Below are positions 10,696-57,198 of a DNA stretch of 64,000 nucleotides, piece after piece. Both the position numbers and the translations under genes were made by a program. The stretch is from Dehalococcoidia bacterium. GTDB lineage: Bacteria > Chloroflexota > Dehalococcoidia > GIF9 > UBA5629. Under the pieces are notes generated by a model. The model was not told the origin of the DNA. It did no database searches and saw only the letters and a list, made by a program, of their open reading frames with translations. The stretch is taken from the NCBI GenBank assembly GCA_034429715.1, contig DAOUFR010000013.1:56095-120094 (forward strand), given 5' to 3'. Numbering within the stretch: the first letter of the stretch is position 1; the number at the start of each line of letters is the position of its first letter.

Positions 10696-10767
10696 TAAAG
10701 ACCGCTCTGCCGCCCCGCAGCTATCGGAATATGGTGGCTCCCGCGGGAGACTGCGGGAGCAATATAT

Positions 10768-11877: not shown

Positions 11878-12621
11878 ATGTTATCAAATCTGCGTTTTCG
11901 CCTGGCGCTTGTATGCGCGCTCGGTTTAATCCTTATCGCCGCCCTATCCGGATGCGGCGGACAACCGGACACACAACCTGTTCAGGCGCCCACCGCGCCG
12001 GTTAACAATCCACCCGTGATTACCGACCTCCATGCCGACACTCCACTAGTTCAACCCCTGGGCAAATCAAATGTTATTTGTGCGGCCAGCGACCCCGACA
12101 GCGATGAGCTTATTTACCGCTGGACCACCAGCGGCGGCATGGTCGACAACACGGGCGCTGCCGTGACCTGGACAGCCCCCGCAGATCCCGGCAGCTATGT
12201 GATTACTGTGGTGGTCAGCGACGGAAAGGGCGGGGCGACCTCCCAGGAGACCACCGTTATGGTGCCGGAAAAGCCCAACAATCCGCCGGCGATCGGTGCC
12301 ATCAAATTCACCAGACCGGGCCGCATGCCTGTCACAGTCAAAGCAAATGCTTCCGCAGAGGAGCTTAAAAAGACCCCCGAACTGGTCATCCGTAAATACG
12401 AGACAGCGCTCGTGGAGTGCGTCGCCGAAGACCAGGACAAAGACCAGTTATCTTATATCTGGAGGGCCAGCGGCGGGAAAGTCATCGGGAACGGCCCGAA
12501 TATACAGTGGATAGCTGCCGGAGACGCAGGAACATACACCATCAATTGCGAGGTCTCCGACGGCAACGGCGGGACTAACTCGTTCACCATTACCATTAGC
12601 GTACACTGCTGCAGCGGTTAG
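11878..12621 (+). CDS. lipoprotein with two PKD/Ig-like repeats
   Basis: Signal peptide plus lipobox (LSGCGG). Two internally repeated modules of about 95 aa (NNPP...SDGKGG / NNPP...SDGNGG) with a PKD-like beta-sandwich signature. Confidence 0.6.
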   Translation: MLSNLRFRLALVCALGLILIAALSGCGGQPDTQPVQAPTAPVNNPPVITDLHADTPLVQPLGKSNVICAASDPDSDELIYRWTTSGGMVDNTGAAVTWTAPADPGSYVITVVVSDGKGGATSQETTVMVPEKPNNPPAIGAIKFTRPGRMPVTVKANASAEELKKTPELVIRKYETALVECVAEDQDKDQLSYIWRASGGKVIGNGPNIQWIAAGDAGTYTINCEVSDGNGGTNSFTITISVHCCSG

Positions 12622-38104: not shown

Positions 38105-38788
38105 GTGAGGAGAATTTTTGGAACCCTCGTTGCAATCGTAGTGGCTTTATCTTTAGTTTTGATACCGGCCACTGTCTCAGCCGACCTCGGCAAATGCACG
38201 GGTTGGGACAAAGTTAAATGGGAAAACAACCAGAATTCCTGGAAGCTATACCTCCAGCACTGGGGAAGGACGCCCACGAGCGCCATGTCCCGACTTGCTG
38301 GTTTATGCGGCCCGGATAAGCTTTGTTCCGGCGTGTGCAACACTTCCCAATGTCCGAAGCCCACGGGCTGCGACATCGCTGAATGCCTGGGTGGATGCAG
38401 CAACTGCAATACACAGGCGGGAACTCTTGGATCTGCATGTGACGATTCCAAGAAATGTCTCAACCCCGAGACCAAGCCCACCTCTCTACCTCTGGATGAC
38501 TGCCCGCTCAATTGCCCGGCCAATGCCACCACCGCAGGCCTCGGCACTTCCAAGTGCTCCGGCTGCTGGGGCAAGAGCCTGTCCTATGCCAACAAGAGCT
38601 GGGCTGCCGCCGATGTCGGCACGAGGGCCAACATCAATAACAGCCACATGAACCACAGGGGCACATCTCCCATCGGTGGCGGTGACTGGGGTATCACCGG
38701 TTGCCCGCATCCCGAGTGTGTGTCTCTCACCTGGTGCCTGCAGAACAACCTTCTGGCCAAGTGCAAGGTCTGCAGCAGCGGCAAATAA
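38105..38788 (+). CDS. secreted cysteine-rich protein (227 aa, about 26 Cys), unknown family
   Basis: N-terminal signal peptide (LVAIVVALSLVLIPATVSA). Many CxxC, CxC and CSxC spacings. Own strong promoter, Shine-Dalgarno and terminator. Confidence 0.7.
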   Translation: MRRIFGTLVAIVVALSLVLIPATVSADLGKCTGWDKVKWENNQNSWKLYLQHWGRTPTSAMSRLAGLCGPDKLCSGVCNTSQCPKPTGCDIAECLGGCSNCNTQAGTLGSACDDSKKCLNPETKPTSLPLDDCPLNCPANATTAGLGTSKCSGCWGKSLSYANKSWAAADVGTRANINNSHMNHRGTSPIGGGDWGITGCPHPECVSLTWCLQNNLLAKCKVCSSGK

Positions 38789-42315: not shown

Positions 42316-43574
42316 TCGACATCAAATTAATACGAGATAATCCTGAAGTTGTATACCAGGCCATGGACAGGCGCGGGGAAGGGCGCGCGGACGTCGATCA
42401 GATCATAGAGCTGGACGTCTCTTACCGTCTGATGCTCAAGGAGGCCGAAGCCCTGCGCGCCCGCCGCAACGACGTGAGCAAGCAGATCAGCCGTATGAAA
42501 GAAAAGCCGGCCGATCTGATAGCCGAGATGCGCCAGGTCGGCGACCGCATCACCCAGATCGAGGCCGAGGCAAATCTGCTGTCGGACAGGCTGGAGGATA
42601 GGTTGCTGCGCCTGCCCAACCTGCCATCCGACGATGTACCGGAAGGGCAGGGCTCGGAAGATAACGTCGAAGTCCGATCATGGGGCCGGACCCCTGAATT
42701 CGCCTTCACACCGCTTCCCCACTGGGACCTGGCTGAAAAGCTGGGCATCATCGATTTCCAGCGCGGCGTCAGACTCTCGGGAACCAGGTTTTACGTGTTG
42801 CGTGGCATGGGCGCCCTGCTGCAGAGAGCTTTGATCAGCTTCATGCTCGACCTTCACGTCAGGGAGCACGGATACATAGAGATCTACCCCCCGTTCATGG
42901 TTAAGCGCGAATGCCTGGTCGGATCAAGCAACCTGCCCAAGTTTGCCGATAACCTGTATCACGACGCGGAGGAAGATTACTGGTTCATCCCCACCGCCGA
43001 GGTCCCTCTGACAAACCTGCACCGCGACGAGATACTGGCGGCCGGCAGCCTCCCTTTATATTATGCCGCGCATACTTCATGTTTCCGCCGCGAGAAAATG
43101 GCGGCCGGCAAGGACACGCGCGGCATCAAGCGCGGGCACCAGTTCGAAAAAGTGGAAATGTACAAGTTCGTCGATCCCTCCACCTCGGACAACGAACTAA
43201 ATAGCCTGCTGGATAATGCCGAGGATATCTGCCGCAGGCTGGAACTGCCCTACCGGGTGATACAACTTTGCACGGGAGACCTGGGCTTTGCCGCCGTCAA
43301 GACCTTCGATATCGAGATGTGGGCGCCTGGCTGCGGCGAGTGGCTTGAAGTCAGCTCCTGCAGCAATTGCGGCGATTTCCAGGCGCGCCGCGCCAATATA
43401 CGCTACCGGCCCGACCCCGAGGCCAAACCTCGCCTGGTACACACGCTTAACGGCTCGGGACTGGCGCTGCCGCGCGTGATGATCGCCGTCATGGAAAACT
43501 ACCAGCGGGAAGACGGCAGCATCGGCGTGCCCGCCGTATTGCAGCCGTACATGAATACCGATATCATCCGATAG
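42312..43574 (+). CDS. serS: serine--tRNA ligase
   Basis: N-terminal coiled-coil arm and class II catalytic core. Start overlaps the lysS stop. Confidence 0.9.
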   Translation: MIDIKLIRDNPEVVYQAMDRRGEGRADVDQIIELDVSYRLMLKEAEALRARRNDVSKQISRMKEKPADLIAEMRQVGDRITQIEAEANLLSDRLEDRLLRLPNLPSDDVPEGQGSEDNVEVRSWGRTPEFAFTPLPHWDLAEKLGIIDFQRGVRLSGTRFYVLRGMGALLQRALISFMLDLHVREHGYIEIYPPFMVKRECLVGSSNLPKFADNLYHDAEEDYWFIPTAEVPLTNLHRDEILAAGSLPLYYAAHTSCFRREKMAAGKDTRGIKRGHQFEKVEMYKFVDPSTSDNELNSLLDNAEDICRRLELPYRVIQLCTGDLGFAAVKTFDIEMWAPGCGEWLEVSSCSNCGDFQARRANIRYRPDPEAKPRLVHTLNGSGLALPRVMIAVMENYQREDGSIGVPAVLQPYMNTDIIR

Positions 43575-43589
43575 ACAGGCCCGCACGCC

Positions 43590-43618
43590 GCCGGTGCCGG
43601 CTCACCGGCCGATTTTTC
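43590..43618 (+). terminator. rho-independent terminator after serS
   Basis: gccggtg-[ccggct]-caccggc followed by cgattttt. Confidence 0.55.
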
Positions 43619-43724
43619 CAGCCTGAACGACGCCAACACCTCCGTTATCTTGACATAGGCTTCAAATTCAATTTAACTATATGTATAATTAAAAGAAATA
43701 TTATAGGCAAGACCCTGAAAAGAT

Positions 43725-45317
43725 ATGGCAGAAGGTGAACCGCAGACCGGTCCGAAGTTTTGCCGCCAGTGCGGCGGTGTAGTACCCGAGGGGACCCCGA
43801 TCTGCCCGCGCTGCGGCCAGAAGTGGTACATGGATCGCGTGGAGCAGCAGGGAGCGGACCTCTGGCAGAAGATCATTGAGAAAAGGGCGGCGGCTGGGAT
43901 CGGTGAAGCCGGTCCGTCTCAGGAACAGAAGCAGTACCGCTGCCCCAACTGCATGGCGGTGCTGCAGGGACCTTCGCCTACATGCCCGCACTGCGGGAAA
44001 AGCACGGCTAAAGCCAGGATCATTCCGCCCGGGAAGGAGGATGAGGCGTCTATTGAAGAGACCGCCGAAGCTCTGAACCTGCCGCCTGCGGCAAAAGGTC
44101 TGGCCTCCATCAAGGGCGCTTCCCAACGCGCAGAGAGAAAGGGCGGCCGGCGCCGGGTCAAAACCCTCGATATTATAATCGGCATTGTTATCATAATTAT
44201 TCTGCTGGGCGTCGGTTACATGTTAGCCAGGCAATACGGCGTCCTGCCTTCATCTCTGACCTTCTTCAATCCGCCCCAGCAACAGGAGGTGCCACCGGAG
44301 CCGACCACCACGGCTGAGAAGGTATCCGATATAGCTATATCGGATATAACCTCGGATGGAGCAGCCATCGCCTGGACCACCCCCGAGCCTGCCTGGGGCA
44401 AAGTCCTATACGGCAAAACGGAGTCCTACGGGGATTCTGCCGCCGCCGTCCTGCAGGGCAGTGCCCAGAAGGTCACACTCAGCGGGCTCGAGCAGTCCAC
44501 GACCTACCACTTCGCTGTAATGGTAACGGACGGTAAGGGCAACGAGCTTTACCGCAGCAATGACCATATGTTCGATACGGTCCAGCGGGTGAACACCACG
44601 CCGCCCGTCGTGACCGGGTTCAAGGTCTTGCCCACGGACGTAAGCGCCGTTATAAGCTGGACCACCGACAACCCTTCCAGCAGCCAGGTGCTTTATGGAT
44701 CGGACGCGTCATGTTCAAGCTCCACCGTCGAGGATACCAGGATGCTCACGGACCACCTGGTGCGTATTCTCGGCCTCGAGGCTAACAGCAGCTATTATTA
44801 CCGCATCAGGTCGGTGGACGCCGATGGGAACGTGGCAACGATGGATCCCCCCAATATATTCACCACCCTGGTCGCAGTGCCCACCGGGCCGCGAATCGGC
44901 GACAGGGCGCCTGATTTCACACTCCCCCTGTTCGGGAAACAGGAGACAATTTCGCTGCGCGACTACCGCGGTCAGAAGGTCCTGCTCACGTTCTGGGCCG
45001 TTTACTGCCCCGAATGCGACCGTGAGCTGTCTTTGCTGCAGTCCATCCAGGATAAAAATATGCCCGGTGTCAAGATCATAGCCGTCTTCATGGAGAGCAA
45101 GCTGGATGACATAGAGAAAACCATCACCAAGTACAAGTCAGAGCGCGGCGAACTCACGGTGCCGGTGGTGTTCGATATGTATAAGACCACAGCCCATTTA
45201 TACAATGTAGAGAAAGCGCCCTATACGGTGTTCATCGATGGTGAAATGATCATCCGCGATATCGAACCGGGCAACTTCAATATTGAGCAGGTCGAGAGGA
45301 CGCTTAATACTTTATAG
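43725..45317 (+). CDS. membrane protein: 2 cytoplasmic zinc ribbons, 1 TM helix, 2 FN3-like repeats, C-terminal TlpA/ResA-like thioredoxin domain (CPEC)
   Basis: CRQCG...CPRCG and CPNC...CPHCG ribbons. Hydrophobic helix LDIIIGIVIIIILLGVGYML. Two W/Y-x-T FN3-like modules. Redoxin motif FWAVYCPEC. Confidence 0.7.
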   Translation: MAEGEPQTGPKFCRQCGGVVPEGTPICPRCGQKWYMDRVEQQGADLWQKIIEKRAAAGIGEAGPSQEQKQYRCPNCMAVLQGPSPTCPHCGKSTAKARIIPPGKEDEASIEETAEALNLPPAAKGLASIKGASQRAERKGGRRRVKTLDIIIGIVIIIILLGVGYMLARQYGVLPSSLTFFNPPQQQEVPPEPTTTAEKVSDIAISDITSDGAAIAWTTPEPAWGKVLYGKTESYGDSAAAVLQGSAQKVTLSGLEQSTTYHFAVMVTDGKGNELYRSNDHMFDTVQRVNTTPPVVTGFKVLPTDVSAVISWTTDNPSSSQVLYGSDASCSSSTVEDTRMLTDHLVRILGLEANSSYYYRIRSVDADGNVATMDPPNIFTTLVAVPTGPRIGDRAPDFTLPLFGKQETISLRDYRGQKVLLTFWAVYCPECDRELSLLQSIQDKNMPGVKIIAVFMESKLDDIEKTITKYKSERGELTVPVVFDMYKTTAHLYNVEKAPYTVFIDGEMIIRDIEPGNFNIEQVERTLNTL

Positions 45318-45387
45318 CTCCATGCCCGAAAATCTCTTGACAGCAGCTACGTCCCGTTGTAGTGTAGATTCATAGGGAGATACCCTT

Positions 45388-47211
45388 TTGGACAGCCAGT
45401 TCAGATGTAAATGCGGCAAGCCGATGGCCTACTCAAACGAGCCGTGCAAAGACTGCGGCAGCCTCGGCCCGCATGCCTATGCCGGCAAGCCCGGCCCCCC
45501 GGCCCCGACCACGCAGGTCCCACCCCAGCAAAGGCGACCTGAGAATATGCCTGTCGACAGGGGTGAGTGGCAGCCTCCTGCATCCACCGGACATGAGGCC
45601 CCGGTCAATTACGAGCCTGATACTACCGACATCGCAAAGGGGCGCGGCCACCACGATACCGCAGGGTTCCCCGTCGGAATCAGCCGCAGGGCCGAGATTC
45701 TCAACCACATAGAGGGCATGGACAGGGAGGACAGGAATGGGCCGTCCAGGCAGCCCCGCAAAGAAAAGAAGCGGACGTCCGACGGTGATTGGGATACCGA
45801 CGAAAGGCCTGCCAGGGTCAAACACTACGAATCCTTCCTCGACGAGGGGGAGGAGGAGGAGAAGCCGCGCAAGAGAGGCGGAGGTCTCGCAGGAAGTATC
45901 ATCAGCATCATACTGGTCGTGGCACTGATAATAGGCGCTCTCTGGGCCTACAGTAATCAGGAAGAGATATCCGGCTGGCTGATGTCACCCACAACCCCGG
46001 AAACGGTTCCTGCCTCGGATCAGCCTGCAAATTCCTCCGGTTCCGGACAGGGTCCCTTTGCCGGCCTGCTGGCGATATTTGGATGGGGAAAAGCGGCGCC
46101 GGTATCCTCCGACAATACCAGTTCGCCGGCCGCATCATCCAACCAGACGGAGCCGGCCGCCACGGACAACGTGCAGACTCCGGTAACGCCCGCCGTGCCT
46201 TCGGATACGACACTTCCCGTTATATCCGAGATACTCATAACGTCCATCACCGATCACGGCGCCAAGGTGACATGGAAGACGGATGAACTCTGCACCGGCA
46301 GGATCACCTATAAGACTGAGGTAGGCGAACCTCACCTCGTTAATGGGGCGGTCACACCCACCCGTTATCATCAGGCCGATTTCAGCGAACTTGAAAGCGG
46401 CAAAACTTATTACATAACCATCATCAGCCGCGATGACTCCGGCAACGAGGCTAAACAGGAGCGGAGCTTCCAGACGTTATTATCGGCCGCAGATACGGCC
46501 GCGCCTCAGCTAACCAGCGAGCCGACAGCATCGGCCAGCGACAGGAATGCCACCATCTCCTGGAAAACAAACGAGAAGGCCAAATCACAGGTCAAATACA
46601 GCCTGGGCACGGGATACGATTTCCCGTCCGGCTTTACTTATGAGTTCAGCAATACTCATAGCGTCTTCCTCAGCGGGCTTTCGCCCAACACGGAGTACCA
46701 TTACCAGCTTATATCCAGAGACGCCTCAGGTAACGTGATGACATCCGGTGATTACACTTTCAAGACCGAGCCCGAGACAGGGGCTGCTCCCTACATGGGC
46801 AGCAAGGCCCCCGATTTCACGCTGCGGAACCTACAGGGTGAGACTGTATCTCTCAGCCAGTTCCGCGGCCAAAAGGTCATCCTCAATTTCTGGGCCAGCT
46901 GGTGTACGCCCTGCAAGATTGAGCTGCCGCATTTCCAGACGCTTTGGGCCAGGTATAATCCGGGCGCCGACTTTGTCATCCTGGCCGTGGCCGGCAGCCA
47001 GTCGGATGAGTCTATTATCAGGGACTTCATTACCGACGGCAATTACACTTTTCCCGTTTGCCTCGATCCGGGCGACGAGGCCTTCAACAAGTATGAGCTT
47101 ACCAGCATACCCAAGACCTACTTTATCGATAAAGACGGCGTCATCCGCAGGATACAGCAGGGCATGTTCACGGGGCCGGGCGAGATCGAGTTCATGCTCA
47201 ACTCGTACTGA
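45388..47211 (+). CDS. membrane protein paralog: zinc ribbon, charged linker, TM helix, 2 FN3-like repeats, TlpA-like thioredoxin domain (WCTPC)
   Basis: CKCG...CKDCG ribbon. TM SIISIILVVALIIGALWAY. FN3-like repeats. Classical thioredoxin active site FWASWCTPC. Confidence 0.7.
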   Translation: MDSQFRCKCGKPMAYSNEPCKDCGSLGPHAYAGKPGPPAPTTQVPPQQRRPENMPVDRGEWQPPASTGHEAPVNYEPDTTDIAKGRGHHDTAGFPVGISRRAEILNHIEGMDREDRNGPSRQPRKEKKRTSDGDWDTDERPARVKHYESFLDEGEEEEKPRKRGGGLAGSIISIILVVALIIGALWAYSNQEEISGWLMSPTTPETVPASDQPANSSGSGQGPFAGLLAIFGWGKAAPVSSDNTSSPAASSNQTEPAATDNVQTPVTPAVPSDTTLPVISEILITSITDHGAKVTWKTDELCTGRITYKTEVGEPHLVNGAVTPTRYHQADFSELESGKTYYITIISRDDSGNEAKQERSFQTLLSAADTAAPQLTSEPTASASDRNATISWKTNEKAKSQVKYSLGTGYDFPSGFTYEFSNTHSVFLSGLSPNTEYHYQLISRDASGNVMTSGDYTFKTEPETGAAPYMGSKAPDFTLRNLQGETVSLSQFRGQKVILNFWASWCTPCKIELPHFQTLWARYNPGADFVILAVAGSQSDESIIRDFITDGNYTFPVCLDPGDEAFNKYELTSIPKTYFIDKDGVIRRIQQGMFTGPGEIEFMLNSY

Positions 47212-47350
47212 TCGTCCGCCGCCCGCAGTCCATCAATCAGTCAACCGGCTTCAGACAGCTGCCTGACACGTAATGATAAACTTGACATAGAGAATATCTT
47301 GTCTTACCGTTAATATAACGTTGAATATAGATTGAGATGGATAATAGTTA

Positions 47351-49576
47351 ATGCCCAGCACGGTTATCTGCCAGAGGTGTCATGAGATCAATGAACCCAA
47401 CGCTACAGTCTGCCAGAAATGTGGCGCGAGGTTCTGCCCGCATTGCCACCTGTTAATCCCCTCACCCGACGCGGCCATCTGCCCGCACTGCGGCAAGAAA
47501 GATCTATCTTTCAGGCCGGGTAAATATTCCGCCGGCAATGTCGCAGCTTCGACGGTGGCGCCGGGCGCCATGCCGGCCAGCAGGTATGTCTGCCCGAGCT
47601 GCGGGAACAGGATAGATCCTTCGCTGGGCAAGTGCCCCTATTGCGGCCAGCTGGGAAACCGTTTCACCATGATTCCCACGCAGGGCCACGGCGTGATGAA
47701 GCCCGCCCAGGGCGACTACGCCCACACATTCGCGGCGCCTCCCCCCGCCGAGGAGGGACAGAGCACGCAGAAGGTCTGTTCCAAGTGCGGCCGTGTCATA
47801 CCGCCCGGCTCCAGCCTGTGCCCTGTGCACGGCAAGTTCGGGGGCGGCAACGCGCTGAGAAATATCACTCCTCCCGTCAGGGACAAGACATTTGAGGGAG
47901 AAGTATACAAGAGGATGGAGGAGAGGAAGGCCGGCCCCGCTCCCCGTTCCAGCGTCAGGCAGGTAGCGCCGGAGGAGATATATCCGCAGATGCAGGCCGC
48001 TCCGGCTACGCCGGAGGCGCCGGCCGCGCCCGCTGAGCAACGCACCTGTTCCAACTGCGGGAATGCCGTGCCCGACCGCAGCAAGGTCTGCCCCACCTGC
48101 GGCAACAACCGTCTTCCGCCGGAGAGGAAAAAGCCCTTTTTGAAGGCCGAGGACCGCTATAGGGCTGTGGAGGCTGCGCAGCAGGCTTACGCCGCATATC
48201 CACCTCAGCAGCAGGCCTATGCAGCATATTCTGCGCCGCAGCAGAGCCAGTATTACGGGCAGCCGGCGGTGCAGCCGTACGAGATGGCCTACCCGGCGCC
48301 GTCGCCCGGATTCGTAGAGGAGATTTATCCTGAGAAAAAACGCGGGAAGGAGAAAATGCCCCGTGAGCGCAAGGAGAGGATGGCAAAGCCGGGGCAGAGG
48401 TCTTCCCCCATTCCCATACTGCTGGCGCTTATCGCGCTGGCCGGGGTCATCATCATCGGAGTCGTATTCCTGATCGACCAGCTCAAGACGCCCGCGCCAG
48501 CCGTTATTAGCAATCCCCCCATCACAACTCCCACCGGCACAACCGAGGGACCCGAGATATCCGAGGTCGAATATTCCAATATCACGCGTACCGGCGCTAC
48601 CGTGACCTGGAAAACCGACAAAGAGTCCAACAGCCTGGTGATCTACTGTCTGGAGGGTGGTACCCTCTGCGAAAACGCCAGGGACAACGAGCTGGTCACC
48701 AACCACAGTGTCAACCTGACCAATCTCGAACAGGGCACATCATATCACATAACCGTGAAATCGGCGCTGGGCGACGATCCCGATTCGCCGGACTCCAGCC
48801 TGGAGGTCACGGGCGTTCTGACCACCCTGAACGTACAGGATACGACACCGCCGATACTCAGCAATGTAAAGGTCACCAATGTCACCAGCGGAGGGTCGGC
48901 GGAGATCACCTGGAACACCGACGAGCCGGCCACCAGCCAGGTCAGCTACGGGACGTCCGCCAGTTACGGAACACTGCAGCCTTCGCAGACCGACACCCAG
49001 CTGACTACCTTCCACGATGTGATGCTCAACGGGCTGGCGCCGCAGACGACCTTCCATTACAAGGTGATATCGAGGGATGCCGACGGCAACGAGAAGTCGT
49101 CCGCCGATGCCACATTTACAACGCCCGTCCCGGCCGGAGCAAATATTGGAAATTCGGCGCCCGATTTCACACTGCAATGCGCGGACGGTACCCAGGTGAC
49201 GCTCAGCTCGCTGCAGGGCAAGAAAGTCATCGTCAACTTCTGGAATTTAAACTGCCACTTCTGCATGGAGGAGATGCCCGATTTTCAGACTGTGCGTGAT
49301 AACCATACCGACAGCAGTGTGGCCATACTGATGATCAACAGCGCCGCCGGAGGATTCCCCGCCAACAATAATGTGTACGTAGGTAATGAGATTACAACTA
49401 ACGAGTGGACCTTCACTGTTCCATTGGACGACTCCGGCGCCGTTGCCCAGGCCTACGACGTAATGAGCGGCATACCGGTGACCTTTTTCATCGACTCCAG
49501 CGGAATCATCAGGGCCAAGCAGGACGGCAAATTCCTCAGTGCAGACGCCATCGAGGCCAAGCTGAGTTCTTATTAA
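47351..49576 (+). CDS. membrane protein paralog: 5 zinc ribbons, Pro/Gln/Ala-rich linker, TM helix, 2 FN3-like repeats, TlpA-like thioredoxin domain (CHFC)
   Basis: Five CxxC...CxxCG ribbons. TM IPILLALIALAGVIIIGVVFLI. FN3-like repeats. FWNLNCHFC redoxin motif. Confidence 0.7.
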   Translation: MPSTVICQRCHEINEPNATVCQKCGARFCPHCHLLIPSPDAAICPHCGKKDLSFRPGKYSAGNVAASTVAPGAMPASRYVCPSCGNRIDPSLGKCPYCGQLGNRFTMIPTQGHGVMKPAQGDYAHTFAAPPPAEEGQSTQKVCSKCGRVIPPGSSLCPVHGKFGGGNALRNITPPVRDKTFEGEVYKRMEERKAGPAPRSSVRQVAPEEIYPQMQAAPATPEAPAAPAEQRTCSNCGNAVPDRSKVCPTCGNNRLPPERKKPFLKAEDRYRAVEAAQQAYAAYPPQQQAYAAYSAPQQSQYYGQPAVQPYEMAYPAPSPGFVEEIYPEKKRGKEKMPRERKERMAKPGQRSSPIPILLALIALAGVIIIGVVFLIDQLKTPAPAVISNPPITTPTGTTEGPEISEVEYSNITRTGATVTWKTDKESNSLVIYCLEGGTLCENARDNELVTNHSVNLTNLEQGTSYHITVKSALGDDPDSPDSSLEVTGVLTTLNVQDTTPPILSNVKVTNVTSGGSAEITWNTDEPATSQVSYGTSASYGTLQPSQTDTQLTTFHDVMLNGLAPQTTFHYKVISRDADGNEKSSADATFTTPVPAGANIGNSAPDFTLQCADGTQVTLSSLQGKKVIVNFWNLNCHFCMEEMPDFQTVRDNHTDSSVAILMINSAAGGFPANNNVYVGNEITTNEWTFTVPLDDSGAVAQAYDVMSGIPVTFFIDSSGIIRAKQDGKFLSADAIEAKLSSY

Positions 49577-49793
49577 ATCTCCTCTGCCGTTTGTAACCAG
49601 CCTCCCGATCCCACGCAGCCATATGAGCGGATCAATAAGATTTTTCTGCAGGCCATTATTATTATGCCAATAATATACTGAATATTGCCAACATTTTTCA
49701 CATTAAGTCGTCTTAAACAACAGTGTTGTCACTTATTTATACCTGTGATAATATTGGAAAATCAATTAAGCATTTCTACAGGATCAACAAATA

Positions 49794-50252
49794 GTGATTG
49801 ACAAGATTGACCGTAAACTGATTATCGAACTACAGAAAGATGGCCGTTACAGCTGTGCATCTTTAGCAAAAAAGCTGGGAATCGGTATATCATCCGTATC
49901 CAGAAGGATCAGACGATTACAGCAGGAAAAGATAATTAAAGTCATAGCCGTGCCAAACGCTGAAAAGCTGGGGCTTGTGGCAACTGCAATAATTGGAATG
50001 GATGTCGATATTGATAAGATAGACAGCGTGTGCTCCAAGCTTGTTATTCACGAAAACATACTCAACGTGGCAATTACTTTTGGGCGGTACAATGTACTGA
50101 TTGAAGCCTATCATCAATCTACAGAGGCATTGCTCAATTTTCTTAAGAATGAACTTTCACAGATCGATGGAATACGCAGTATAGAGACTTACTATATTGC
50201 CGAACTCAAGAAGCGTACCTACGGTTTATTGCAGGAACATATTCAAGCTTAA
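49794..50252 (+). CDS. Lrp/AsnC-family transcriptional regulator
   Basis: N-terminal HTH (DRKLIIELQKDGRYSCASLAKKLGI) and C-terminal RAM/ACT-like domain. GTG start. Confidence 0.8.
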   Translation: MIDKIDRKLIIELQKDGRYSCASLAKKLGIGISSVSRRIRRLQQEKIIKVIAVPNAEKLGLVATAIIGMDVDIDKIDSVCSKLVIHENILNVAITFGRYNVLIEAYHQSTEALLNFLKNELSQIDGIRSIETYYIAELKKRTYGLLQEHIQA

Positions 50253-50301
50253 CGACAGCAAATACAAAACTCTTGTTCAAGAATTCCCATGGAAATCACA
50301 A

Positions 50302-51498
50302 TCACATGACTACTTTATCATGACGCAGATCAGCCATTTTCTTACTATTGTAACCAAGCTCTTTTAATATTTCGGCGGTGTGTTCACCCAGAAACGGCCC
50401 GAAACTTCTTACTCCGCCCGGTGTATCAGAGAGTTTAATAGGCAGACCCACCTGCTTTACCTTTCCCTCAGTCGGATGGTCGAGTTCAAGCATCATCTTG
50501 CGGTGCGCGATCTGAGGATCGGAAAAAACCTCACCAAGCTGATAAACAGGAGCAATACATATATCTTTGCTTTTCAAGAAATCAAACCATTCATCTCTGG
50601 TTTTTGTCAGAAAAATACGTTGGAAACAATCTCTTATCGCTTCCCTTTCCTGTCCGCCAGCAAATTGCTTCGGTATGAAATCCTCTTTGCCTAAAGACCT
50701 GCAAAGGTTCTCCCAGAATTTTGGTTCAAAGCACCCCAAAGTGATATAACCGTCATCTTTAGTTCTATAAACAGTAGCCCAGGGAAAGACGCCGCTAAAC
50801 ATGGTATTCCCCCTTCCGGGTTCGTCTCCCGTCATAAAATAATCAGAGATGAAGCGAACCAATAACGAAACAACTCCATCGGTCATCGATATATCCAGGT
50901 ATTGTCCCCTGCCGGATTTTTGCGCTGCTATTAAAGCCAGCAGAATACCGACAGTCGCCATTAAGCCACCACCTGCGTAATCAGCCAGTAAATTCAAAGG
51001 TAATACGGGGGCTTCACCCGAATTGCCGATCAGGCCTAATGCACCTGCAATCGCGATGTAATTTGGATCATGTCCGGGCAATCCAGCATAAGGCCCGGTC
51101 TGACCATAGCCGCTGATTGAACAGTAGATCATCCTTGGATTGATCCGGCGAATATTCTCATAATCTATGCGGAGACGTTTGACCACACCGGGTCTGAATC
51201 CATCTACGATTACATCTGCTTTACAGGCAAGTTGCATAAAAATGGCGTGTCCCTGCTCTGTTTTAAGATCGATCGCTATACTTTTCTTGTTTCGCAGCAG
51301 CGCCGTAAATGCAGTTGCCGCCCTTCCACTTTCTCCCTTCAGGGGAGATACACCAGATCCAAAGATCGGTTCGTCTTGTCCCCTCGGCTGTTCAACCTTT
51401 ATCACTTCCGCGCCCATATCTGCAAGCATCATCGTACAGTAGGCATGCGGTGCAACACGGCTCAAATCTAAAACTCGTATGCCATCTAATGGGCCCAT
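50302..51498 (-). CDS. family III CoA-transferase (CaiB/BaiF family)
   Basis: N-terminus GPLDGIRVLDLSRVAPHAYC. Conserved catalytic Asp region of CaiB/BaiF. Confidence 0.85.
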   Translation of the reverse strand: MGPLDGIRVLDLSRVAPHAYCTMMLADMGAEVIKVEQPRGQDEPIFGSGVSPLKGESGRAATAFTALLRNKKSIAIDLKTEQGHAIFMQLACKADVIVDGFRPGVVKRLRIDYENIRRINPRMIYCSISGYGQTGPYAGLPGHDPNYIAIAGALGLIGNSGEAPVLPLNLLADYAGGGLMATVGILLALIAAQKSGRGQYLDISMTDGVVSLLVRFISDYFMTGDEPGRGNTMFSGVFPWATVYRTKDDGYITLGCFEPKFWENLCRSLGKEDFIPKQFAGGQEREAIRDCFQRIFLTKTRDEWFDFLKSKDICIAPVYQLGEVFSDPQIAHRKMMLELDHPTEGKVKQVGLPIKLSDTPGGVRSFGPFLGEHTAEILKELGYNSKKMADLRHDKVVM

Positions 51499-51652
51499 TC
51501 AGGTACCTCCATCTAAATATCGATCGGTTATCAAGCTGTTCACCATTCCATCGGGCGGCTCAAAGGGAGGCGCGGGCAATTGACCCGCCTCCTGCATGTT
51601 ATGTCGACTGCCACAATAAATACCGTGGCTCAGGCTATTTCAAAGGCTTATC

Positions 51653-52945
51653 TCACCTGGTCTCAAAAACAATCTGGACTTTCTCAACTTTATCCACATC
51701 TTTCTTATAGAAAAACGACCCTGCGAAAAAGAGGACACCGGCAACTATGAGCAACACAGGCATTCCCTGCAATGCTTTATCCAGGCCGTATACATCAGAT
51801 AAAGCTCCGATAACGAGGGGGCCAAGAGCACTGCCCAGCAGGCATTGAATAACTATGTTAACGCTGTGCGAGGTGGACCTGAGGCCGGGGTGGACGACGT
51901 CCTGTGTAACGGCTATAGCACCCGGGGCATACATTATAACCAGTAATCCGAAGCCAAGAAGTATGCTGAACTGAAGGCTCCCGTGAAAGAGAAAGGCGAT
52001 GAACAGCAATATTGCCGCCAGGGTACAACTGATGGCGGGAACAAGCATTCTGGCATTGGATTTCCGTTTAAGCCACTGATCGGTGAGAAAGCCGCTCAAC
52101 GGGGCGCCTACAATTGCCAGCAACATAACCACACTGGCCATCAAACCCGAGCGTTCGATGCTCATCCCCTCGAATCTCTGAAAATATGAAGGCAGCCAGG
52201 TCGTCATGGCCGTAGTAGTAAATCCACATGCAGCAAATGCCAGGTTGTTAAAGACCAGCGACTTGCTGCGGAACAGCTCTTTGACAACATCGAGTTTGCT
52301 CATTTTTACTTTGCTTGATGATTCATCCGCGGTCACAGACTTTTCGAGTGCAATTGTTTTATAATCCTTCACCCAGAAAAACAAGATAGCAATGATAATC
52401 CCGGGAATTGCCACAATGCCCAGTGCATGCCTCCACCCCAGCGCAACAGCAATTACACCACCTACTGTAACTCCCACAGCCATCCCCAGCGGGATGGCAG
52501 ATTGCCATATCCCTATCATCCTGGCACGCTTTTCCGGCTTGAAAATTGCAGAGATCATCGCAGCGCCACCCGGTGAATACCCGGCTTCGCCAACCCCAAC
52601 GACACAACGTGTGGCAAAGAGTTGCGCGAAGTTCGTGGTAAACGCACCGGCTGCCGTCGCCAAACCCCATATAATTGACATTAAACCGATGCTCTTTTTT
52701 CGGCTCCAACGATCCACCAGAGCACCAACAGGCAAGGTGAATACCACGAGAGACCAGAAAACCGCTGATATCATCAGCCCGCATTGAACATCAGTTAAAC
52801 CCCAGTCGCTCTTAAGAAACGGGAATAGTGATATGATGACAAACCTGTCGATGTAATCAAACATGAAGAGCAGATATAAGAGAATATAGGCATACCATGC
52901 TCTCCACCGCGGGTAAGTTACAGCTGCTTCCGTGCTCTGGTTCAT
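51653..52945 (-). CDS. MFS transporter
   Basis: 12 predicted TM helices. MFS loop motif (GALVDRWSRKK). Confidence 0.8.
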   Translation of the reverse strand: MNQSTEAAVTYPRWRAWYAYILLYLLFMFDYIDRFVIISLFPFLKSDWGLTDVQCGLMISAVFWSLVVFTLPVGALVDRWSRKKSIGLMSIIWGLATAAGAFTTNFAQLFATRCVVGVGEAGYSPGGAAMISAIFKPEKRARMIGIWQSAIPLGMAVGVTVGGVIAVALGWRHALGIVAIPGIIIAILFFWVKDYKTIALEKSVTADESSSKVKMSKLDVVKELFRSKSLVFNNLAFAACGFTTTAMTTWLPSYFQRFEGMSIERSGLMASVVMLLAIVGAPLSGFLTDQWLKRKSNARMLVPAISCTLAAILLFIAFLFHGSLQFSILLGFGLLVIMYAPGAIAVTQDVVHPGLRSTSHSVNIVIQCLLGSALGPLVIGALSDVYGLDKALQGMPVLLIVAGVLFFAGSFFYKKDVDKVEKVQIVFETR

Positions 52946-52985
52946 TTAAAACTACCTCCCCTCGCTTTTTATTTCATATGGGCCG

Positions 52986-54221
52986 TTATTGCACAACGCC
53001 GTCGTTTATTAACGAAGCAAAATCTTCACCAGATAAATTGAGAATTTTGGTGCAGACGAATTCGTTGTCCTCACCTAAAAGCGGCGCTCGTCCTGCTGCA
53101 TATGGTGTTGCGGACAGTTTAACCGGCCAACCTTGCACTATGTACTGTCCCAGTGTCGGATGGTCGACGGATGAATAATAGCCTCGATGCTTCAGCTGGG
53201 AATCCTTATATACTAAATCCTCTCCTCGTTTGACAACACCCGCTGCTATGCCTGCCTTCTGCAATTTACGTACCAGCTCTTCCGGTGAATAGCCAGATGT
53301 CCATGCCCCTATCAGCTCATCCAGTTTATCCTCATTGTCTTTCCTGCCAGACAGGGTAGAGAACTCAGGCTTACCAGTCCAGCCGGGATTACCCATCAGC
53401 CGGCATAAGGTGTCCCAGTCCACGTCTGTGGAAATAGATATAACACACCATCTGTCCTCACCTTTGCATCGATATACATTATTGGGGCAGGCATAAGATG
53501 ATCTGTTACCACATCTGATCTCTTCATGCCGGTTAACTGCATAATCAAGAATTGTGGGGGATATGCTGTGAAGAGTGGCCTCGAGCTGAGATATGTCAAT
53601 ATATTGGCCTTTACCTGTACGCTGCCGGTAGTCCAGAGCTGCCATTATGGCACACAGAGAAATCACGGGAGTAACAACGTCCGGATACACATCCGGAGGT
53701 GCGGTGGGTTCTCTGTCCTCCCAACCTGTAATGTGATAAAGCCCCGTTGCACCGGCTGCGTGTATGCCCCAGCCCTTAAAGGAAGAAAGAGGACCGGTTT
53801 GCCCCTGGTTACTTATGCTTACCAGGATGACATCGCTTTTAACTTTTTTAAGTTCGTTATAGTCCAATCCCCATCTTTCCATGCCGCCCGGACCGAAGTT
53901 CTCAATGACCACGTCACTCCACGCGACAAGCATCTTGGCAACTTCTATTCCGCGAGGGTGACCGAGATTGAGCGTCAGGCTGCGTTTACCATTGTTGAAT
54001 ACAGGGAATGCTATCGAGTGATCAAGGTCGACTTTGTCATCTTTATATGGCGAGCTTAACCGGCATAAATCAGGATGGATCCTGGATTCTAACTTTATCA
54101 CCTGTGCTCCAAAATCAGCCAGGTATGCGCCGCATATTGGTCCGGCCACCACCCATGTGAAATCAAGTACTTTCAATCCCTGCAGAGCATACATCTTTCG
54201 CACCTCGTTCAAATAATGCAA
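52986..54221 (-). CDS. family III CoA-transferase (CaiB/BaiF family)
   Basis: LQGLKVLDFTWVVAGP N-terminus and CaiB/BaiF fold. Confidence 0.85.
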   Translation of the reverse strand: MHYLNEVRKMYALQGLKVLDFTWVVAGPICGAYLADFGAQVIKLESRIHPDLCRLSSPYKDDKVDLDHSIAFPVFNNGKRSLTLNLGHPRGIEVAKMLVAWSDVVIENFGPGGMERWGLDYNELKKVKSDVILVSISNQGQTGPLSSFKGWGIHAAGATGLYHITGWEDREPTAPPDVYPDVVTPVISLCAIMAALDYRQRTGKGQYIDISQLEATLHSISPTILDYAVNRHEEIRCGNRSSYACPNNVYRCKGEDRWCVISISTDVDWDTLCRLMGNPGWTGKPEFSTLSGRKDNEDKLDELIGAWTSGYSPEELVRKLQKAGIAAGVVKRGEDLVYKDSQLKHRGYYSSVDHPTLGQYIVQGWPVKLSATPYAAGRAPLLGEDNEFVCTKILNLSGEDFASLINDGVVQ

Positions 54222-55465
54222 TCCTGCTTCAACTTTCCAAGCTCCTGCGATGAAAGTCCTATCTCCTTTCCAAGAATTTCAGCATTATGTTCACCGATAA
54301 GCGGAGCCCGGCGGTGCATTGCACAAGAGGTCTCGTTAGAAATGAAGATGAAAGCCGGATAAGGGATAGGACTGTCTAATTCAGGATGCTCCAAATACCT
54401 CCAGTATCCTCTGGACCGAAAATGTGAACTCTCATATACATCTTTAGGAGAATATACCTTTAGAATTCGCAGGCCTCTTTTAAGCGCCTCATTTTGGATT
54501 TCGTCCTTTGTAAAGTGATTGAAGAAATCCTGGATGATGCTATTCCAGGAGTCGACTTCCGACTGTGATATCTTCGACATGTCGATCGATGCCCAATCGA
54601 CTTCTTTCAAGATACCCGCTTCTCCCTGTTCATCAATCCATTTCACCAGGGCAGTCCACTCCTGCGCACCCCATATGCCACCCATAAATCGCCAGAGTAC
54701 ATAACCGTCTTTACATTTCCAGACGTCTCGCTGATAAGCATTGCCTCGCAATATGATATTGCCTCTTCTGGTTTCGGATATCCCCCTTCCCGCAATCCAC
54801 GGCAGAATGCTATAGCCAAAACGCAGGACAGCCTCCTGGATTGAGACATCCACATGCTGCCCTTGCCCCGTCGCCTTACGATAGTAATGAGCAATCAGTG
54901 CTCCTGCAGTCGCATGTATGCCAGCAAGGAAATAAGATTGGTCACCTCCCATTCGCAGGGGAGGTCTGTCGGCATCGCCCGTTATATACATCAGCCCCCC
55001 TTCCGCCATACAAACAATATCCGATCCCCTGCGATCCTTATACGGACCTGTCTGCCCAAAAGGAGTAATCGATATCATTATCAGCCCGGGATTCAGTTTA
55101 CTCAGCGTACTATAGCCCAGTCTCAGTGAATCCAGATATCCCGGGGTGTAAGTCTCCAGCAAGAAATCAGCCTTTCCAACCAAATCTTTGAAAATGTTTT
55201 TGCCGGCCGCGGTCTCAATATCAAGCGTAATGCCTCGCTTGTTAGCATTGTAAGCAAACCAGTGAAGGCTCTTCTCCGGGTCCTGAATATTGTGGTAAAA
55301 CGGCCCGATTCTCCGGCTGGCATCTCCTCCGGGCCTTTCCACTTTGATGACATCCGCTCCTAAATCCGCCAGTAATTTGCCGCAGATAAAACCTGTTTCA
55401 TCTGCTAAGTCTAAAACACGGTATGGATCTAACGGCGCGCTGTGATCCTCACCTTTATCTACCAT
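54209..55465 (-). CDS. family III CoA-transferase (CaiB/BaiF family)
   Basis: YRVLDLADETGFICGKLLADLGADVIKVE N-terminus. Stop overlaps the next CoA-transferase start. Confidence 0.85.
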   Translation of the reverse strand: MVDKGEDHSAPLDPYRVLDLADETGFICGKLLADLGADVIKVERPGGDASRRIGPFYHNIQDPEKSLHWFAYNANKRGITLDIETAAGKNIFKDLVGKADFLLETYTPGYLDSLRLGYSTLSKLNPGLIMISITPFGQTGPYKDRRGSDIVCMAEGGLMYITGDADRPPLRMGGDQSYFLAGIHATAGALIAHYYRKATGQGQHVDVSIQEAVLRFGYSILPWIAGRGISETRRGNIILRGNAYQRDVWKCKDGYVLWRFMGGIWGAQEWTALVKWIDEQGEAGILKEVDWASIDMSKISQSEVDSWNSIIQDFFNHFTKDEIQNEALKRGLRILKVYSPKDVYESSHFRSRGYWRYLEHPELDSPIPYPAFIFISNETSCAMHRRAPLIGEHNAEILGKEIGLSSQELGKLKQDCII

Positions 55466-55517
55466 TGATTAATCTCCTGCCATTAGAGCATTAAATAAAT
55501 ACCTGGAACACCCTGCT

Positions 55518-56681
55518 TTATTTCCTTTGGTCAAATCTTCGATGCAGCAGGAGAGAGGCCAGAGTGATTTTCTGAATCTCAATCGTACCGCCGGCGACAC
55601 CCCAGCCCCAGGCGTCGCGCATCAGCCGCTCTACAGGATAATCCGTGGAATAGCCGTATCCGCCGTGTACCTGTAAGGCCATTCCGGTGACCTCTCTCAC
55701 CATTTGATTGGCAAAGCACTTGGCCAGATTGGCCTCAAGCGGAGCAGGCAATCCTGCTGCCGCGTTGACCGTAGCTTTGTAAATAAGAAGACGGGCGGCC
55801 TCCACTTTAAGCGCCATATCCGCCAGCATGAACTGGATTGCCTGGAATTCGCAGATTTCCTTTCCCCACTGCTTCCTTTGCAGCGAATAGGCCATTGCTT
55901 CCTCAAGCGCACCCTGGGCTATGCCCAGGCACATAGTCGCGTTGCCGCATCGCTCAAGATCAAAGGCGACCATTAACTTTCTGAATTCACCCTCCTTAAC
56001 TATGAGATTCTCTTTTGGAACCCGGCAATTTTCGAAAATCAGGTCGCAACTCGGGGCGCCCCTCATACCCATGAACTGCTCCTGTTTACCAAAGAGGAAA
56101 CCCGGGGACCCTTTATCGATGATTAAGCCGCCTATACCTTTAGCCCCTTTCTGTTCGCCGAGTCTGATATAGACAACGTAAACATCGGCTTCCCCTCCGC
56201 CGCTGATAAAGCGTTTTGTTCCATTCACAATATAGAAATTGCCGTCCGGCACTGCTTTAGTCCTGAGATCGGTCAATGCCGAACCGGCTTCAGGTTCAGT
56301 CATTGCAGCAGCAATCCACAGTGTTCCCTCGCATACGGGTCTAACATACTTATCCTTCTGTTCTTCCGTGCCGAACAGTTCAATGATCCTCACCGGTCCT
56401 ACACTGGATTCGAAGATGGGCGCAGCACATATGCACGATACCCGTGCAAACTCTTCAATAGCTAAAATAGCCTCAAAAGCAGTTCGCCCCTGTCCCCCAT
56501 ATTTTGTAGAGATGGGTAATCCCAGCAACCCCAGATCTGCCAGCTTCTTGAAATACTCGTGGCGGGGCATATGCTCGGCTTTTGAATCCCATTCTGCAAC
56601 TTTCGGTCGGAACTCCTTTTCAACGACATCGTGCGCCAGCTTCTTGATCATTTTCTGCTCTTCGTTTAGCTCAAATTCCAT
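55518..56681 (-). CDS. acyl-CoA dehydrogenase
   Basis: ACAD N-terminal alpha, middle beta and C-terminal alpha domains. Catalytic Glu region near the C-terminus (YGYSTDYPVERLMRDA). Confidence 0.85.
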   Translation of the reverse strand: MEFELNEEQKMIKKLAHDVVEKEFRPKVAEWDSKAEHMPRHEYFKKLADLGLLGLPISTKYGGQGRTAFEAILAIEEFARVSCICAAPIFESSVGPVRIIELFGTEEQKDKYVRPVCEGTLWIAAAMTEPEAGSALTDLRTKAVPDGNFYIVNGTKRFISGGGEADVYVVYIRLGEQKGAKGIGGLIIDKGSPGFLFGKQEQFMGMRGAPSCDLIFENCRVPKENLIVKEGEFRKLMVAFDLERCGNATMCLGIAQGALEEAMAYSLQRKQWGKEICEFQAIQFMLADMALKVEAARLLIYKATVNAAAGLPAPLEANLAKCFANQMVREVTGMALQVHGGYGYSTDYPVERLMRDAWGWGVAGGTIEIQKITLASLLLHRRFDQRK

Positions 56682-56967
56682 GTAATTCCCTCCTCTAAGA
56701 AATCCCGGCTATTTTAAATTTCGCTAATCAAGCAACCGCAGCAATAATAATAAGGTATTACGTTTTTATTGTCAATATTATGCTACTTTTATAAAGGTTA
56801 ATAACATTATATTGCTATTTCACCTACTGAATTGGCATATTATGGCTTTCATATGGCAATAGGAGGCTGCCCGGTCCTTGTTTTCACATAATTACACCTG
56901 CATTTTCATCATGCCTTCATACGTGCCGCATACAATTAAAGAACGATAAAAATACAGGAGCAATAAA

Positions 56968-57198
56968 ATGATGGGTTACTGGTTAACTGGAATGGGATGG
57001 TGGATGGCATTAGCAGGCATCCTGTTTGTGCTGTTCTGGGGCGGCGTTATCTGGCTGATAGTCTGGGGCGTGACGAAAGCGACCGGGCACGGGGCTGGCT
57101 GCACTACGATAGAAAGCCCGCTGGAGATCGCCAAGCGGCGCTATGCGCAGTCGGAGATAACCAGGGAGCAGTTCGAGCAGATTAAAAAAGACCTTTAG
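56968..57198 (+). CDS. SHOCT-domain small membrane protein
   Basis: N-terminal TM helix plus C-terminal LEIAKRRYAQSEITREQFEQIKKDL (SHOCT motif). Confidence 0.6.
   Translation: MMGYWLTGMGWWMALAGILFVLFWGGVIWLIVWGVTKATGHGAGCTTIESPLEIAKRRYAQSEITREQFEQIKKDL

Follow-up and report, generated by a model that had tools for sequence, protein, structure and literature searches.

Extracytoplasmic thiol reductases are known mainly from the assembly of cytochrome c and copper centres in proteobacteria and Firmicutes, and from the repair of oxidative damage in streptococci; TlpA and CcmG/DsbE, for instance, are periplasmic reductases for copper-centre and cytochrome c assembly. In the window analysed here—a continuous 64-kb stretch of Dehalococcoidia DNA, taken as a whole—three neighbouring genes on the plus strand, which we call A, B, and C, encode proteins that end in a domain of this general class and begin with zinc ribbons. 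Both ends have described counterparts. In the pneumococcus, Etrx1/2-CcdA-MsrAB2 forms a pathway from thioredoxin via CcdA to extracytoplasmic reductases (PMC3914529), and cytoplasmic N-terminal ribbons sit on membrane proteins known as Znf-heliorhodopsins, where they are thought to recruit partners (bioRxiv 10.1101/2021.02.01.429150).

As judged from their sequences, A, B, and C are lineage-restricted extracytoplasmic thiol-disulfide oxidoreductases of the TlpA/ResA type. The enzyme type is ordinary; neither the domain combination nor the fixed array of three genes has been described, both are restricted to one lineage, and the literature searched contained no match for a combination of zinc-ribbon, FN3, and redoxin domains. 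In the following, L-numbers denote related loci that were fetched for comparison and P-numbers denote related proteins.

Architecture and catalytic domain of A, B, and C

Calling of open reading frames (ORFs) recovered the three same-strand genes of 530, 607, and 741 amino acids (aa) described in the initial annotation (Table 1), and Pfam searches together with sequence reading bore out the build proposed there: zinc ribbon(s), a transmembrane helix, two FN3-like domains, and a TlpA/ResA-type thioredoxin (Trx) domain. The ribbon counts of two, one, and five likewise stood when the sequences were read, with the ribbon of B being atypical and the fourth ribbon of C ending in CPxH. At the C terminus all three proteins matched Pfam AhpC-TSA/Redoxin above the cutoffs (E = 1.7e-19, 1.9e-26, and 3.7e-23 for A, B, and C, respectively), and ahead of the Trx domain the FN3-like families fn3 and Pur_ac_phosph_N matched twice in each protein. 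The ribbons of C are strung on disordered linkers rich in proline, glutamine, and tyrosine. Each protein contains a single strongly hydrophobic segment (by sequence reading, aa 150–168 in A, 167–185 in B, and 357–375 in C), with four to eight lysine or arginine residues before it and none or one after it. This charge distribution predicts an N-in/C-out orientation, and A, B, and C are accordingly predicted to be single-pass membrane proteins whose Trx domain is extracytoplasmic; the AlphaFold model of A contains the membrane helix at aa 145–170.

The catalytic residues are strongly conserved. In 15–40 orthologs per paralog, the two CxxC cysteines, a glutamate three residues past the second cysteine (which we take to occupy the position of Glu80 in ResA), and the cis-proline are invariant or at least 90% conserved. 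Specifically, C428, P429, E430, and C431 of A are at least 90% conserved and P499 is invariant in an alignment of 40 sequences; the motif WCxPCKxExPHF and P575 are invariant among B orthologs, as are both active-site cysteines, Glu641, and P709 among C orthologs. One ortholog of A, P0357, is without a CxxC. The initial annotation had read a different CxxC in each copy—CPEC, CTPC, and CHFC—and this reading is correct. Its further suggestion, that the copies differ in redox potential or substrate through these motifs, fared unevenly: a fixed setting can be upheld for A (CPEC at least 90% conserved) and for B (C[TS]PC in all orthologs examined), and not for C, in whose orthologs the dipeptide drifts through HF, HY, GY, PY, QW, GP, AP, SY, PP, and DP. 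Since the dipeptide varies freely there, CHFC is no family trait, and the notion of three fixed redox settings is reduced to A and B.

The class of the domain was established in several ways. The ResA subfamily was the top NCBIfam match for A, B, and C (71.1, 107.2, and 74.4 bits), and as these scores lie below its cutoff of 170 bits (PRK03147), the proteins are not ResA orthologs, though they belong to a TlpA/ResA-like sub-family. Sequence matches in the PDB and the predicted fold confirmed this assignment. For the B domain, the best PDB match was Etrx2 (2yp6/4hqz; E = 2.4e-25), next to a thioredoxin-family protein from Geobacter, StoA (3erw), and ResA (4nmu/1st9), with weaker matches to TlpA (1jfu) and CcmG. 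An AlphaFold model of full-length A, built from the 40-sequence alignment, had a mean predicted local distance difference test score (pLDDT) of 75.9, with most ectodomain blocks at 80–94. In Foldseek comparisons, its enzymatic head superposed on ResA, Chlorobium DsbE, and Etrx2 with template-modelling (TM) scores of 0.81–0.89 and root-mean-square deviations of 1.7–2.5 Å over 138–146 columns; with CcmG included, the TM scores ranged from 0.76 to 0.89. Whole soluble domains superposed, and the model of A thus shows a thioredoxin fold that includes the hairpin at the N terminus and the insert in the centre typical of ResA/TlpA. Many orthologs bear the JGI name peroxiredoxin, which we rejected: the motif PxxxT/SxxC is absent, the site reads F-W-A-x-x-C-x-x-C as in thioredoxins, and peroxiredoxins appeared among the PDB matches of the B domain only at E ~1e-5, the top matches being thiol-disulfide oxidoreductases. 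B has two further invariant cysteines, one at aa 302 in its first FN3-like domain (46291–46293) and one at aa 558 in the Trx domain (47059–47061), which could form an inter-domain disulfide.

The stalk of A superposed in Foldseek on the tandem FN3 domains of DCC, Tie2, and fibronectin. When a profile of B orthologs was searched against 1.84 billion representatives, the result was dominated by proteins of 1,000–7,345 aa carrying 6–25 copies of the FN3 pair, identifying the stalk as a common surface-protein repeat. Full-length B-type clusters were few in this search which, swamped as it was by giant multi-FN3 proteins, says little on the spread of the full architecture. The first FN3-like domain of C contains an invariant CX6C pair (C433/C440; 48647–48649 and 48668–48670) that is kept in out-group proteins (see below) devoid of the catalytic CxxC.

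Table 1. Positions of the genes, protein parts, and regulatory elements of the A-B-C locus, followed by two arrangements from related loci (positions refer to the window unless an L-number is given).
Feature	Position	Strand	Details	Basis
Terminator-like hairpin after serS	43590–43609	+	7-bp stem, 6 GC pairs, T-run	
Promoter-like block of A	43650–43689	+	TTGACA 43650–43655; TTCAAA 43661–43666, 17 nt, TATAAT 43684–43689	
Gene A	43725–45317	+	530 aa, ATG start	ORF call, Pfam, 40-sequence alignment, AlphaFold, Foldseek
A, N-terminal parts			ribbons aa 13–30 and 73–90, helix aa 38–56 between them; transmembrane segment aa 145–170	
A, ectodomain			FN3-like ~aa 198–288 and 292–383; ResA-like Trx aa 390–530	
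Active site of A	45006–45017	+	CPEC, aa 428–431, context WAVYCPEC; Glu434; cis-Pro P499	
Promoter-like element of B	45337–45365	+	TTGACA-17-TAGTGT; ribosome-binding site AGGGAG 45374–45379; TTG start 45388	
Gene B	45388–47211	+	607 aa, TTG start	ORF call, Pfam, NCBIfam, ortholog alignment, PDB sequence matches
B, N-terminal parts			atypical ribbon CxC-x10-CxxCGSLGPH aa 7–29 (Cys span aa 7–23); acidic/basic cytoplasmic region; transmembrane segment aa 165–187	
B, ectodomain			FN3-like ~aa 276–365 and 370–462; Trx aa 468–607	
Active site of B	46903–46914	+	CTPC, aa 506–509, context WASWCTPC; E512; cis-Pro P575	
Promoter-like element of C	47282–47310	+	TTGACA-17-TACCGT	
Gene C	47351–49576	+	741 aa, ATG start	ORF call, Pfam, ortholog alignment, AlphaFold of aa 1–350
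C, N-terminal parts			ribbons aa 7–24, 29–47, 81–98, 143–160 (ends CPxH), and 233–250; transmembrane segment aa 352–377	
C, ectodomain			FN3-like ~aa 399–492 and 497–592; Trx aa 598–741	
Active site of C	49253–49264	+	CHFC, aa 635–638, context WNLNCHFC; Glu641; cis-Pro P709	
B-N / B' (example)	L019 8668–9306 / 9353–10747			
Sister-lineage array	L036 4285–8693; L037 5656–11101; L039, L040 6538–12226		trxA - ccdA - small redoxin - ribbon-transmembrane-FN3x2-redoxin - transmembrane-FN3-redoxin - more redoxins	

Cytoplasmic zinc ribbons

Support for the ribbons by Pfam profiles differed among the paralogs. C matched DZR, Zn_Ribbon_1, and Zn_ribbon_3 at 51.8, 51.1, and 46.6 bits (cutoffs 25–27.3), a ribbon match in A fell just under its cutoff (24.3 vs 27.3 bits), and no zinc-ribbon profile matched B, despite its invariant CxC/CxxC...CxxCGSLGPH pattern. 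With their knuckle spacing of CxxC-x10-11-CxxC, the ribbons are of the short type. All ribbon cysteines are invariant in the alignments of A and C, including the CPxH of ribbon 4 in C, and the CxxCGSLGPH of B is invariant as well. In terms of mean pairwise identity, the ribbons (0.73–0.78) and the intervening helix (0.84) of A compare with 0.72 for its Trx domain and 0.34–0.36 for its linkers; in C, the ribbons reach 0.71–0.81, the Trx domain 0.53, and the linkers 0.37–0.47. Ribbons that equal or exceed the enzyme in identity and keep every cysteine argue that the N-terminal extensions of A and C are strongly constrained, and not the fortuitous, unconserved additions that had initially been considered as a counter-explanation. 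The ribbon-helix-ribbon unit of A aligns with ribbons 4–5 of C; A equals these two ribbons plus the helix, and five ribbons are the ancestral state for C.

Modelled with 51 sequences, the first 350 residues of C yielded two helices and disordered linkers, with a predicted TM score (pTM) of 0.24. Local confidence was high where the ribbons lie (pLDDT ~80–90 for aa 1–55, 79 for aa 140–160, and 85 for aa 230–255; ~70–90 for the ribbon hairpins of A and C overall), and the combination of confident ribbons, disordered linkers, and low pTM portrays this part of C as beads on a string. Foldseek of the cytoplasmic part of C against the PDB returned nothing below E = 1, and only generic ribbons such as L40e and NZF/RanBP2 fingers. 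In the model, then, the cytoplasmic part of C gives no hint of a sensor or enzyme, or of a fold that binds DNA; the ribbons appear functional, yet they form no compact sensor, and they are probably interaction modules.

Two more specific identities for the ribbons were considered and rejected. In rubredoxin, the two knuckles are ~29 residues apart; the spacing of 10–11 residues found here speaks against a rubredoxin-like electron wire, to which a bare transmembrane helix would, moreover, offer no route through the membrane. A zinc-binding anti-sigma factor, which would show the HxxxCxxC motif and an adjacent ECF sigma-factor gene, was dismissed because Pfam zf-HC2 did not match and the conserved neighbourhood holds no sigma-factor gene. 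P0141, which joins a B-type N terminus to C-type ribbons, was set aside because its contig may be chimeric. The transmembrane and juxtamembrane segment of C recurs nearly identically (PILLALIALAGVII...DQLKTPAPAV) in P0146, a protein of 489 aa whose ectodomain is of another kind and which also contains a Ser/Thr kinase domain. Elsewhere in the window, a 97-aa protein on the minus strand (10768–11061) contains two treble-clef zinc fingers (zf_Tbcl and zf_Tbcl_2), which bear no relation to the ribbons of the triplet.

Conservation of the triplet and its promoter-like elements

Protein searches returned dozens of orthologs with 41–96% identity and full-length coverage, which marks A, B, and C as genuine genes rather than chance ORFs, and exact copies of B and C were found on a 125.8-kb NCBI/Logan contig. 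In a collection of one genome per species (185,579 species), C orthologs occurred in 31 genomes, all of them metagenome-assembled genomes (MAGs) of Dehalococcoidia/Chloroflexota. The orthologs that carry database names ("redoxin domain-containing protein", "zinc-ribbon domain-containing protein", or "peroxiredoxin/RNA polymerase subunit.../Spt4") also come from Dehalococcoidia or Chloroflexota MAGs. By tblastn, the proteins encoded in the fetched loci are 41–91% identical to those of the window, and the order GreA-LysS-SerS-A-B-C was found in every fetched locus with sufficient upstream DNA; the triplet was present in each related genome that could be checked. The paralogs are only 24–37% identical to one another over the ectodomain. 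Given this distance, the higher identity among orthologs, and the fixed gene order, the triplication is older than the radiation of the clade. A longer conserved block comprises speE, speD, a gene for a cysteine-rich protein of 227 aa (described below), DUF2007, DRTGG, GreA, LysS, SerS, and A-B-C.

In a sub-clade of ten genomes (L018–L020, L023, L024, L026–L029, and L034), B is replaced by two genes. The first, B-N (194–212 aa), comprises only the B-type ribbon, cytoplasmic region, and transmembrane segment, and its stop codon always follows directly upon WLASPTVPExxKPS; the second, B' (448–470 aa), begins ~45 nt past B-N in most loci and has a B-like ribbon of its own, a transmembrane segment, one FN3 domain, and a B-type Trx domain. 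Ten species have kept a protein of ribbon and membrane anchor intact, which suggests a role of this module in its own right. In L026, a transposase-like ORF of 466 aa (8387–9787) sits between B' and C, which implies that co-transcription is not required.

The hairpin located 3' of serS sets the triplet apart from the housekeeping genes upstream, and our scan detected no terminator-like sites between A, B, and C. As had been noted from the sequence initially, each gene is preceded by TTGACA and TATAAT-like hexamers: a literal TTGACA is found at 43650, 45337, and 47282, and when the intergenic regions ahead of A, B, and C were aligned for 11 species, the boxes proved conserved in 10–11 of them. 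Upstream of A, the block TTCAAATTCAATTTAACTATATGTATAAT is almost invariant in the 11 species, with CTTGAC followed by a near-invariant stretch of 33 nt that ends in TATAAT; here TTCAAA-17-TATAAT (10/12 matches) was the only intergenic promoter to pass a consensus scan. Ahead of B, CTTGACAG...CCCGTTGTAGTGTAGA is invariant in 10/11 species; the exception is L025, which lacks it and where the gap measures 24 nt. In front of C, AAACTTGACA is invariant in the 11 species and, further downstream, TTACC(G/T)TTAATATA, with its TACC(G/T)T box, is conserved. Such conservation supports separate promoters for A, B, and C. Five loci (L011, L014, L017, L002, and L022) have ~60–95 extra bases between the B box and the B start, absent from the window genome and possibly a 5' leader. 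An Rfam search of 43000–50300 gave no match at E <= 1.

Function, neighbourhood, and relation to known systems

Out-group relatives of the triplet, with 29–40% identity and most similar to C, N-terminal double ribbon included, offer a pointer to electron supply. In four loci (L036, L037, L039, and L040; Table 1), they directly follow trxA, ccdA (DsbD_TM), and a small redoxin gene, an adjacency that reproduces the gene logic of a pathway from thioredoxin via CcdA to an extracytoplasmic reductase. Combining this observation with the architecture, predicted topology, catalytic class, conservation, synteny, and promoter footprints reported above, we infer—and consider fairly likely—that A, B, and C are extracytoplasmic thiol reductases that draw their electrons from CcdA, differ in their clients, and have promoters of their own, and that their ribbons serve as docking modules. 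Cytoplasmic thioredoxin would pass electrons to a membrane protein of the CcdA type whose gene lies elsewhere in the genome, and this protein would keep the CxxC reduced; the reduced CxxC would then reduce or isomerise disulfides or sulfenic acids in extracytoplasmic clients or partner enzymes, comparable to Etrx1/2-CcdA-MsrAB2. The three paralogs may act on different clients, each being transcribed from a separate conserved promoter. Their FN3 pair would be a spacer that holds the Trx domain off the membrane, as in giant surface proteins, while the ribbons, as structural Zn(Cys)4 knuckles on flexible linkers, would lie outside the electron path and dock proteins (or nucleic acid), and so localise, assemble, or regulate A, B, and C.

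Several observations weigh against this proposal. Genes for ccdA/dsbD, msr, cytochrome c, or ccs/res were found neither in the window nor within 10 kb of the triplet in ~30 loci, and tblastn with the out-group CcdA had no match in the window, nor in any of the 35 loci that represent the A-B-C clade (L001–L035), so that neighbouring genes place neither the electron donor nor the clients in the A-B-C lineage itself. Whether the catalysed reaction is reduction, oxidation, or isomerisation cannot be read from sequence, and the CxxC dipeptide of C drifts freely. Among the out-group proteins, the redoxin-like domains of P0373 and P0374 are without CxxC and P0379 has a single cysteine, from which it follows that part of the family may be non-catalytic. 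The docking role of the ribbons is our inference, and all carriers are uncultured MAGs.

The initial annotation had suggested a transmembrane redox or sensing device. In explicit form, the cytoplasmic four-cysteine sites, acting as Zn-thiolate switches or as rubredoxin-like iron centres, would detect redox or metal state or pass it on, and would thereby govern the domain outside, or control would run in the opposite direction, possibly within a hetero-oligomer of A, B, and C (and B-N). Such a relay would fit ribbons that in A and C are at least as conserved as the catalytic domain, a gene order fixed in all genomes, an intact B-N of ribbon and membrane anchor in ten of them, and a ribbon-helix-ribbon unit common to A and C; it is on account of ribbon conservation and B-N that it retains some probability. 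We nevertheless regard it as unlikely, as no tested feature supports sensing: a single transmembrane helix without a cofactor site cannot carry electrons, the ribbons have the spacing of short zinc ribbons and not of rubredoxin, and they stay independent of one another in AlphaFold (pTM 0.24, no packed domain) with only generic fold matches at E > 1. The conserved neighbourhood contains no kinase, sigma factor, or other regulator or output domain (the AsnC gene downstream of C is not conserved), Pfam gives no match to the anti-sigma family zf-HC2, and relatives adjoin trxA-ccdA, the usual electron route. Invariant ribbon arrays, the fixed A-B-C order, and the retained B-N could also mean that A, B, and C (plus B-N) join via their cytoplasmic and transmembrane parts into one hetero-oligomeric envelope machine, whose Zn-thiolate sites would couple cytoplasmic redox or metal state, or a partner, to surface thiol chemistry. 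We assign this a low probability; if true, it would represent an inside-out control not described for TlpA/ResA-type enzymes.

A further reading is ordinary ResA/CcmG-type cytochrome c maturation, with the enzymes reducing apocytochrome CxxCH and the N-terminal and FN3 parts being lineage decoration. ResA, DsbE, and CcmG are indeed the best NCBIfam and structural matches, and one cluster member bears the JGI name "cytochrome c-type biogenesis protein". Yet scores of 71–107 bits are far under the ResA cutoff, no resB/resC (ccsBA) or cytochrome gene accompanies the triplet in the window, in the ~30 syntenic loci, or in the gene lists of related loci, and the decorations are as conserved as the enzyme in a job that needs neither a stalk nor three conserved paralogs; cultured Dehalococcoidia—and this concerns cultured members only—are not known to possess c-type cytochromes. 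The initial annotation had itself named such homologs as the outcome that would overturn its reading; we find this one quite improbable. Much the same holds for disulfide-forming or -isomerising enzymes of the DsbA/DsbC kind, acting on secreted cysteine-rich proteins of a monoderm-type cell. A secreted protein with at least 16 invariant cysteines is encoded in the same syntenic block, 5 kb upstream (38105–38788), the CHFC/CHYC of many C orthologs recalls the CPHC of DsbA, and extra invariant cysteine pairs are present in the first FN3 domain of C and in B. Set against this are the fold, the glutamate after CxxC, and the closest relatives (ResA, Etrx, StoA, and TlpA), all indicative of reductases, as well as the out-group genes beside the reducing trxA-ccdA pathway and the lack of any DsbB/VKOR gene seen in the window, which leave an oxidase or isomerase a poor prospect. 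Least plausible of all, and very improbable, are mainly structural surface proteins with an FN3 stalk and a Trx-like binding head, catalysis being secondary or lost. While giant surface proteins are built from repeats of this FN3 pair, P0373/P0374 and the A ortholog P0357 are without CxxC, and the dipeptide of C is variable, the two cysteines, glutamate, and cis-proline are (near-)invariant in all three ortholog groups, which would be unexpected for pseudo-enzymes.

Some neighbouring genes deserve mention. The 227-aa protein (38105–38788, plus strand) carries a signal peptide and more than 20 cysteines and has no Pfam match; its counterparts in two related genomes (L001 2708–3394; L002 894–1550) share 93% and 78% identity with it, at least 16 cysteines being invariant, and it is a possible client of extracytoplasmic thiol-disulfide enzymes. 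A membrane protein of the MauE/DoxX family (11291–11833) adjoins a PKD/Big_9 surface protein (11878–12621); MauE partners the TlpA-like MauD in methylamine dehydrogenase maturation. Past C, positions 49794–57000 are lower in GC (0.46–0.50 vs 0.54–0.59 in the flanking 36–50 kb) and encode an AsnC/Lrp protein, three family III CoA-transferases, an MFS transporter, and an acyl-CoA dehydrogenase. The region 3' of C is variable, with other genes in L001 and L002, and the AsnC/Lrp gene (49794–50252) was for this reason rejected as a dedicated regulator.

Uncultured Dehalococcoidia of sediment and peat keep three diverged copies of the enzyme, and four in one sub-clade. Should the ribbons recruit partners or exert regulation, this would be a new way in which cells that lack a periplasm bounded by an outer membrane organise the redox maintenance of their envelope, and would provide a function for the widespread, unexplained module of zinc ribbon and transmembrane helix. 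Even otherwise, for a family of a few hundred proteins the assignment corrects the database names "peroxiredoxin" and "RNA polymerase subunit/Spt4".

Among described systems, the group of Bacillus subtilis ResA and StoA is the top NCBIfam family and shares with A, B, and C the Trx fold with TlpA-type additions (Foldseek TM score 0.84–0.88, ~1.9 Å over ~138 residues), the CxxC followed by glutamate, the cis-proline, and a membrane anchor at the N terminus that leaves the domain outside. Unlike ResA, of ~180 aa, the proteins described here span 530–741 aa, score below the ResA cutoff, lack a resBC context, place two FN3 domains between anchor and enzyme, add one to five cytoplasmic ribbons, and come as three fixed paralogs. 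TlpA of Bradyrhizobium and CcmG/DsbE belong to the same Trx sub-family and follow the same logic of a membrane-anchored reductase (matches 1jfu and 2b1k), but they match less well than ResA and Etrx, and A, B, and C possess extra domains and no Sco/Cox or ccm context, the window containing no sco gene. In Etrx1/Etrx2 of Streptococcus pneumoniae, which provide the best PDB sequence match to the B domain, the likeness extends to a surface reductase in a cell without an outer-membrane-bounded periplasm, to multiple paralogs in one pathway, and to electrons supplied by CcdA, relatives of A, B, and C being encoded beside trxA-ccdA (PMC3914529); Etrx proteins are, however, lipoproteins without stalk or cytoplasmic domain, and their genes lie with ccdA and msrAB2, whereas no ccdA or msr lies near A, B, and C. 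The N-terminal parts, finally, resemble those of Znf-heliorhodopsins and of other fusions of DZR/Zn_Ribbon_1 to single- or multi-pass membrane proteins, which likewise carry short CxxC-x10-17-CxxC ribbons at the cytoplasmic N terminus; what distinguishes A, B, and C from these is that up to five ribbons follow one another, each of them invariant throughout the clade, and that they are joined to a redox enzyme outside the cytoplasm.

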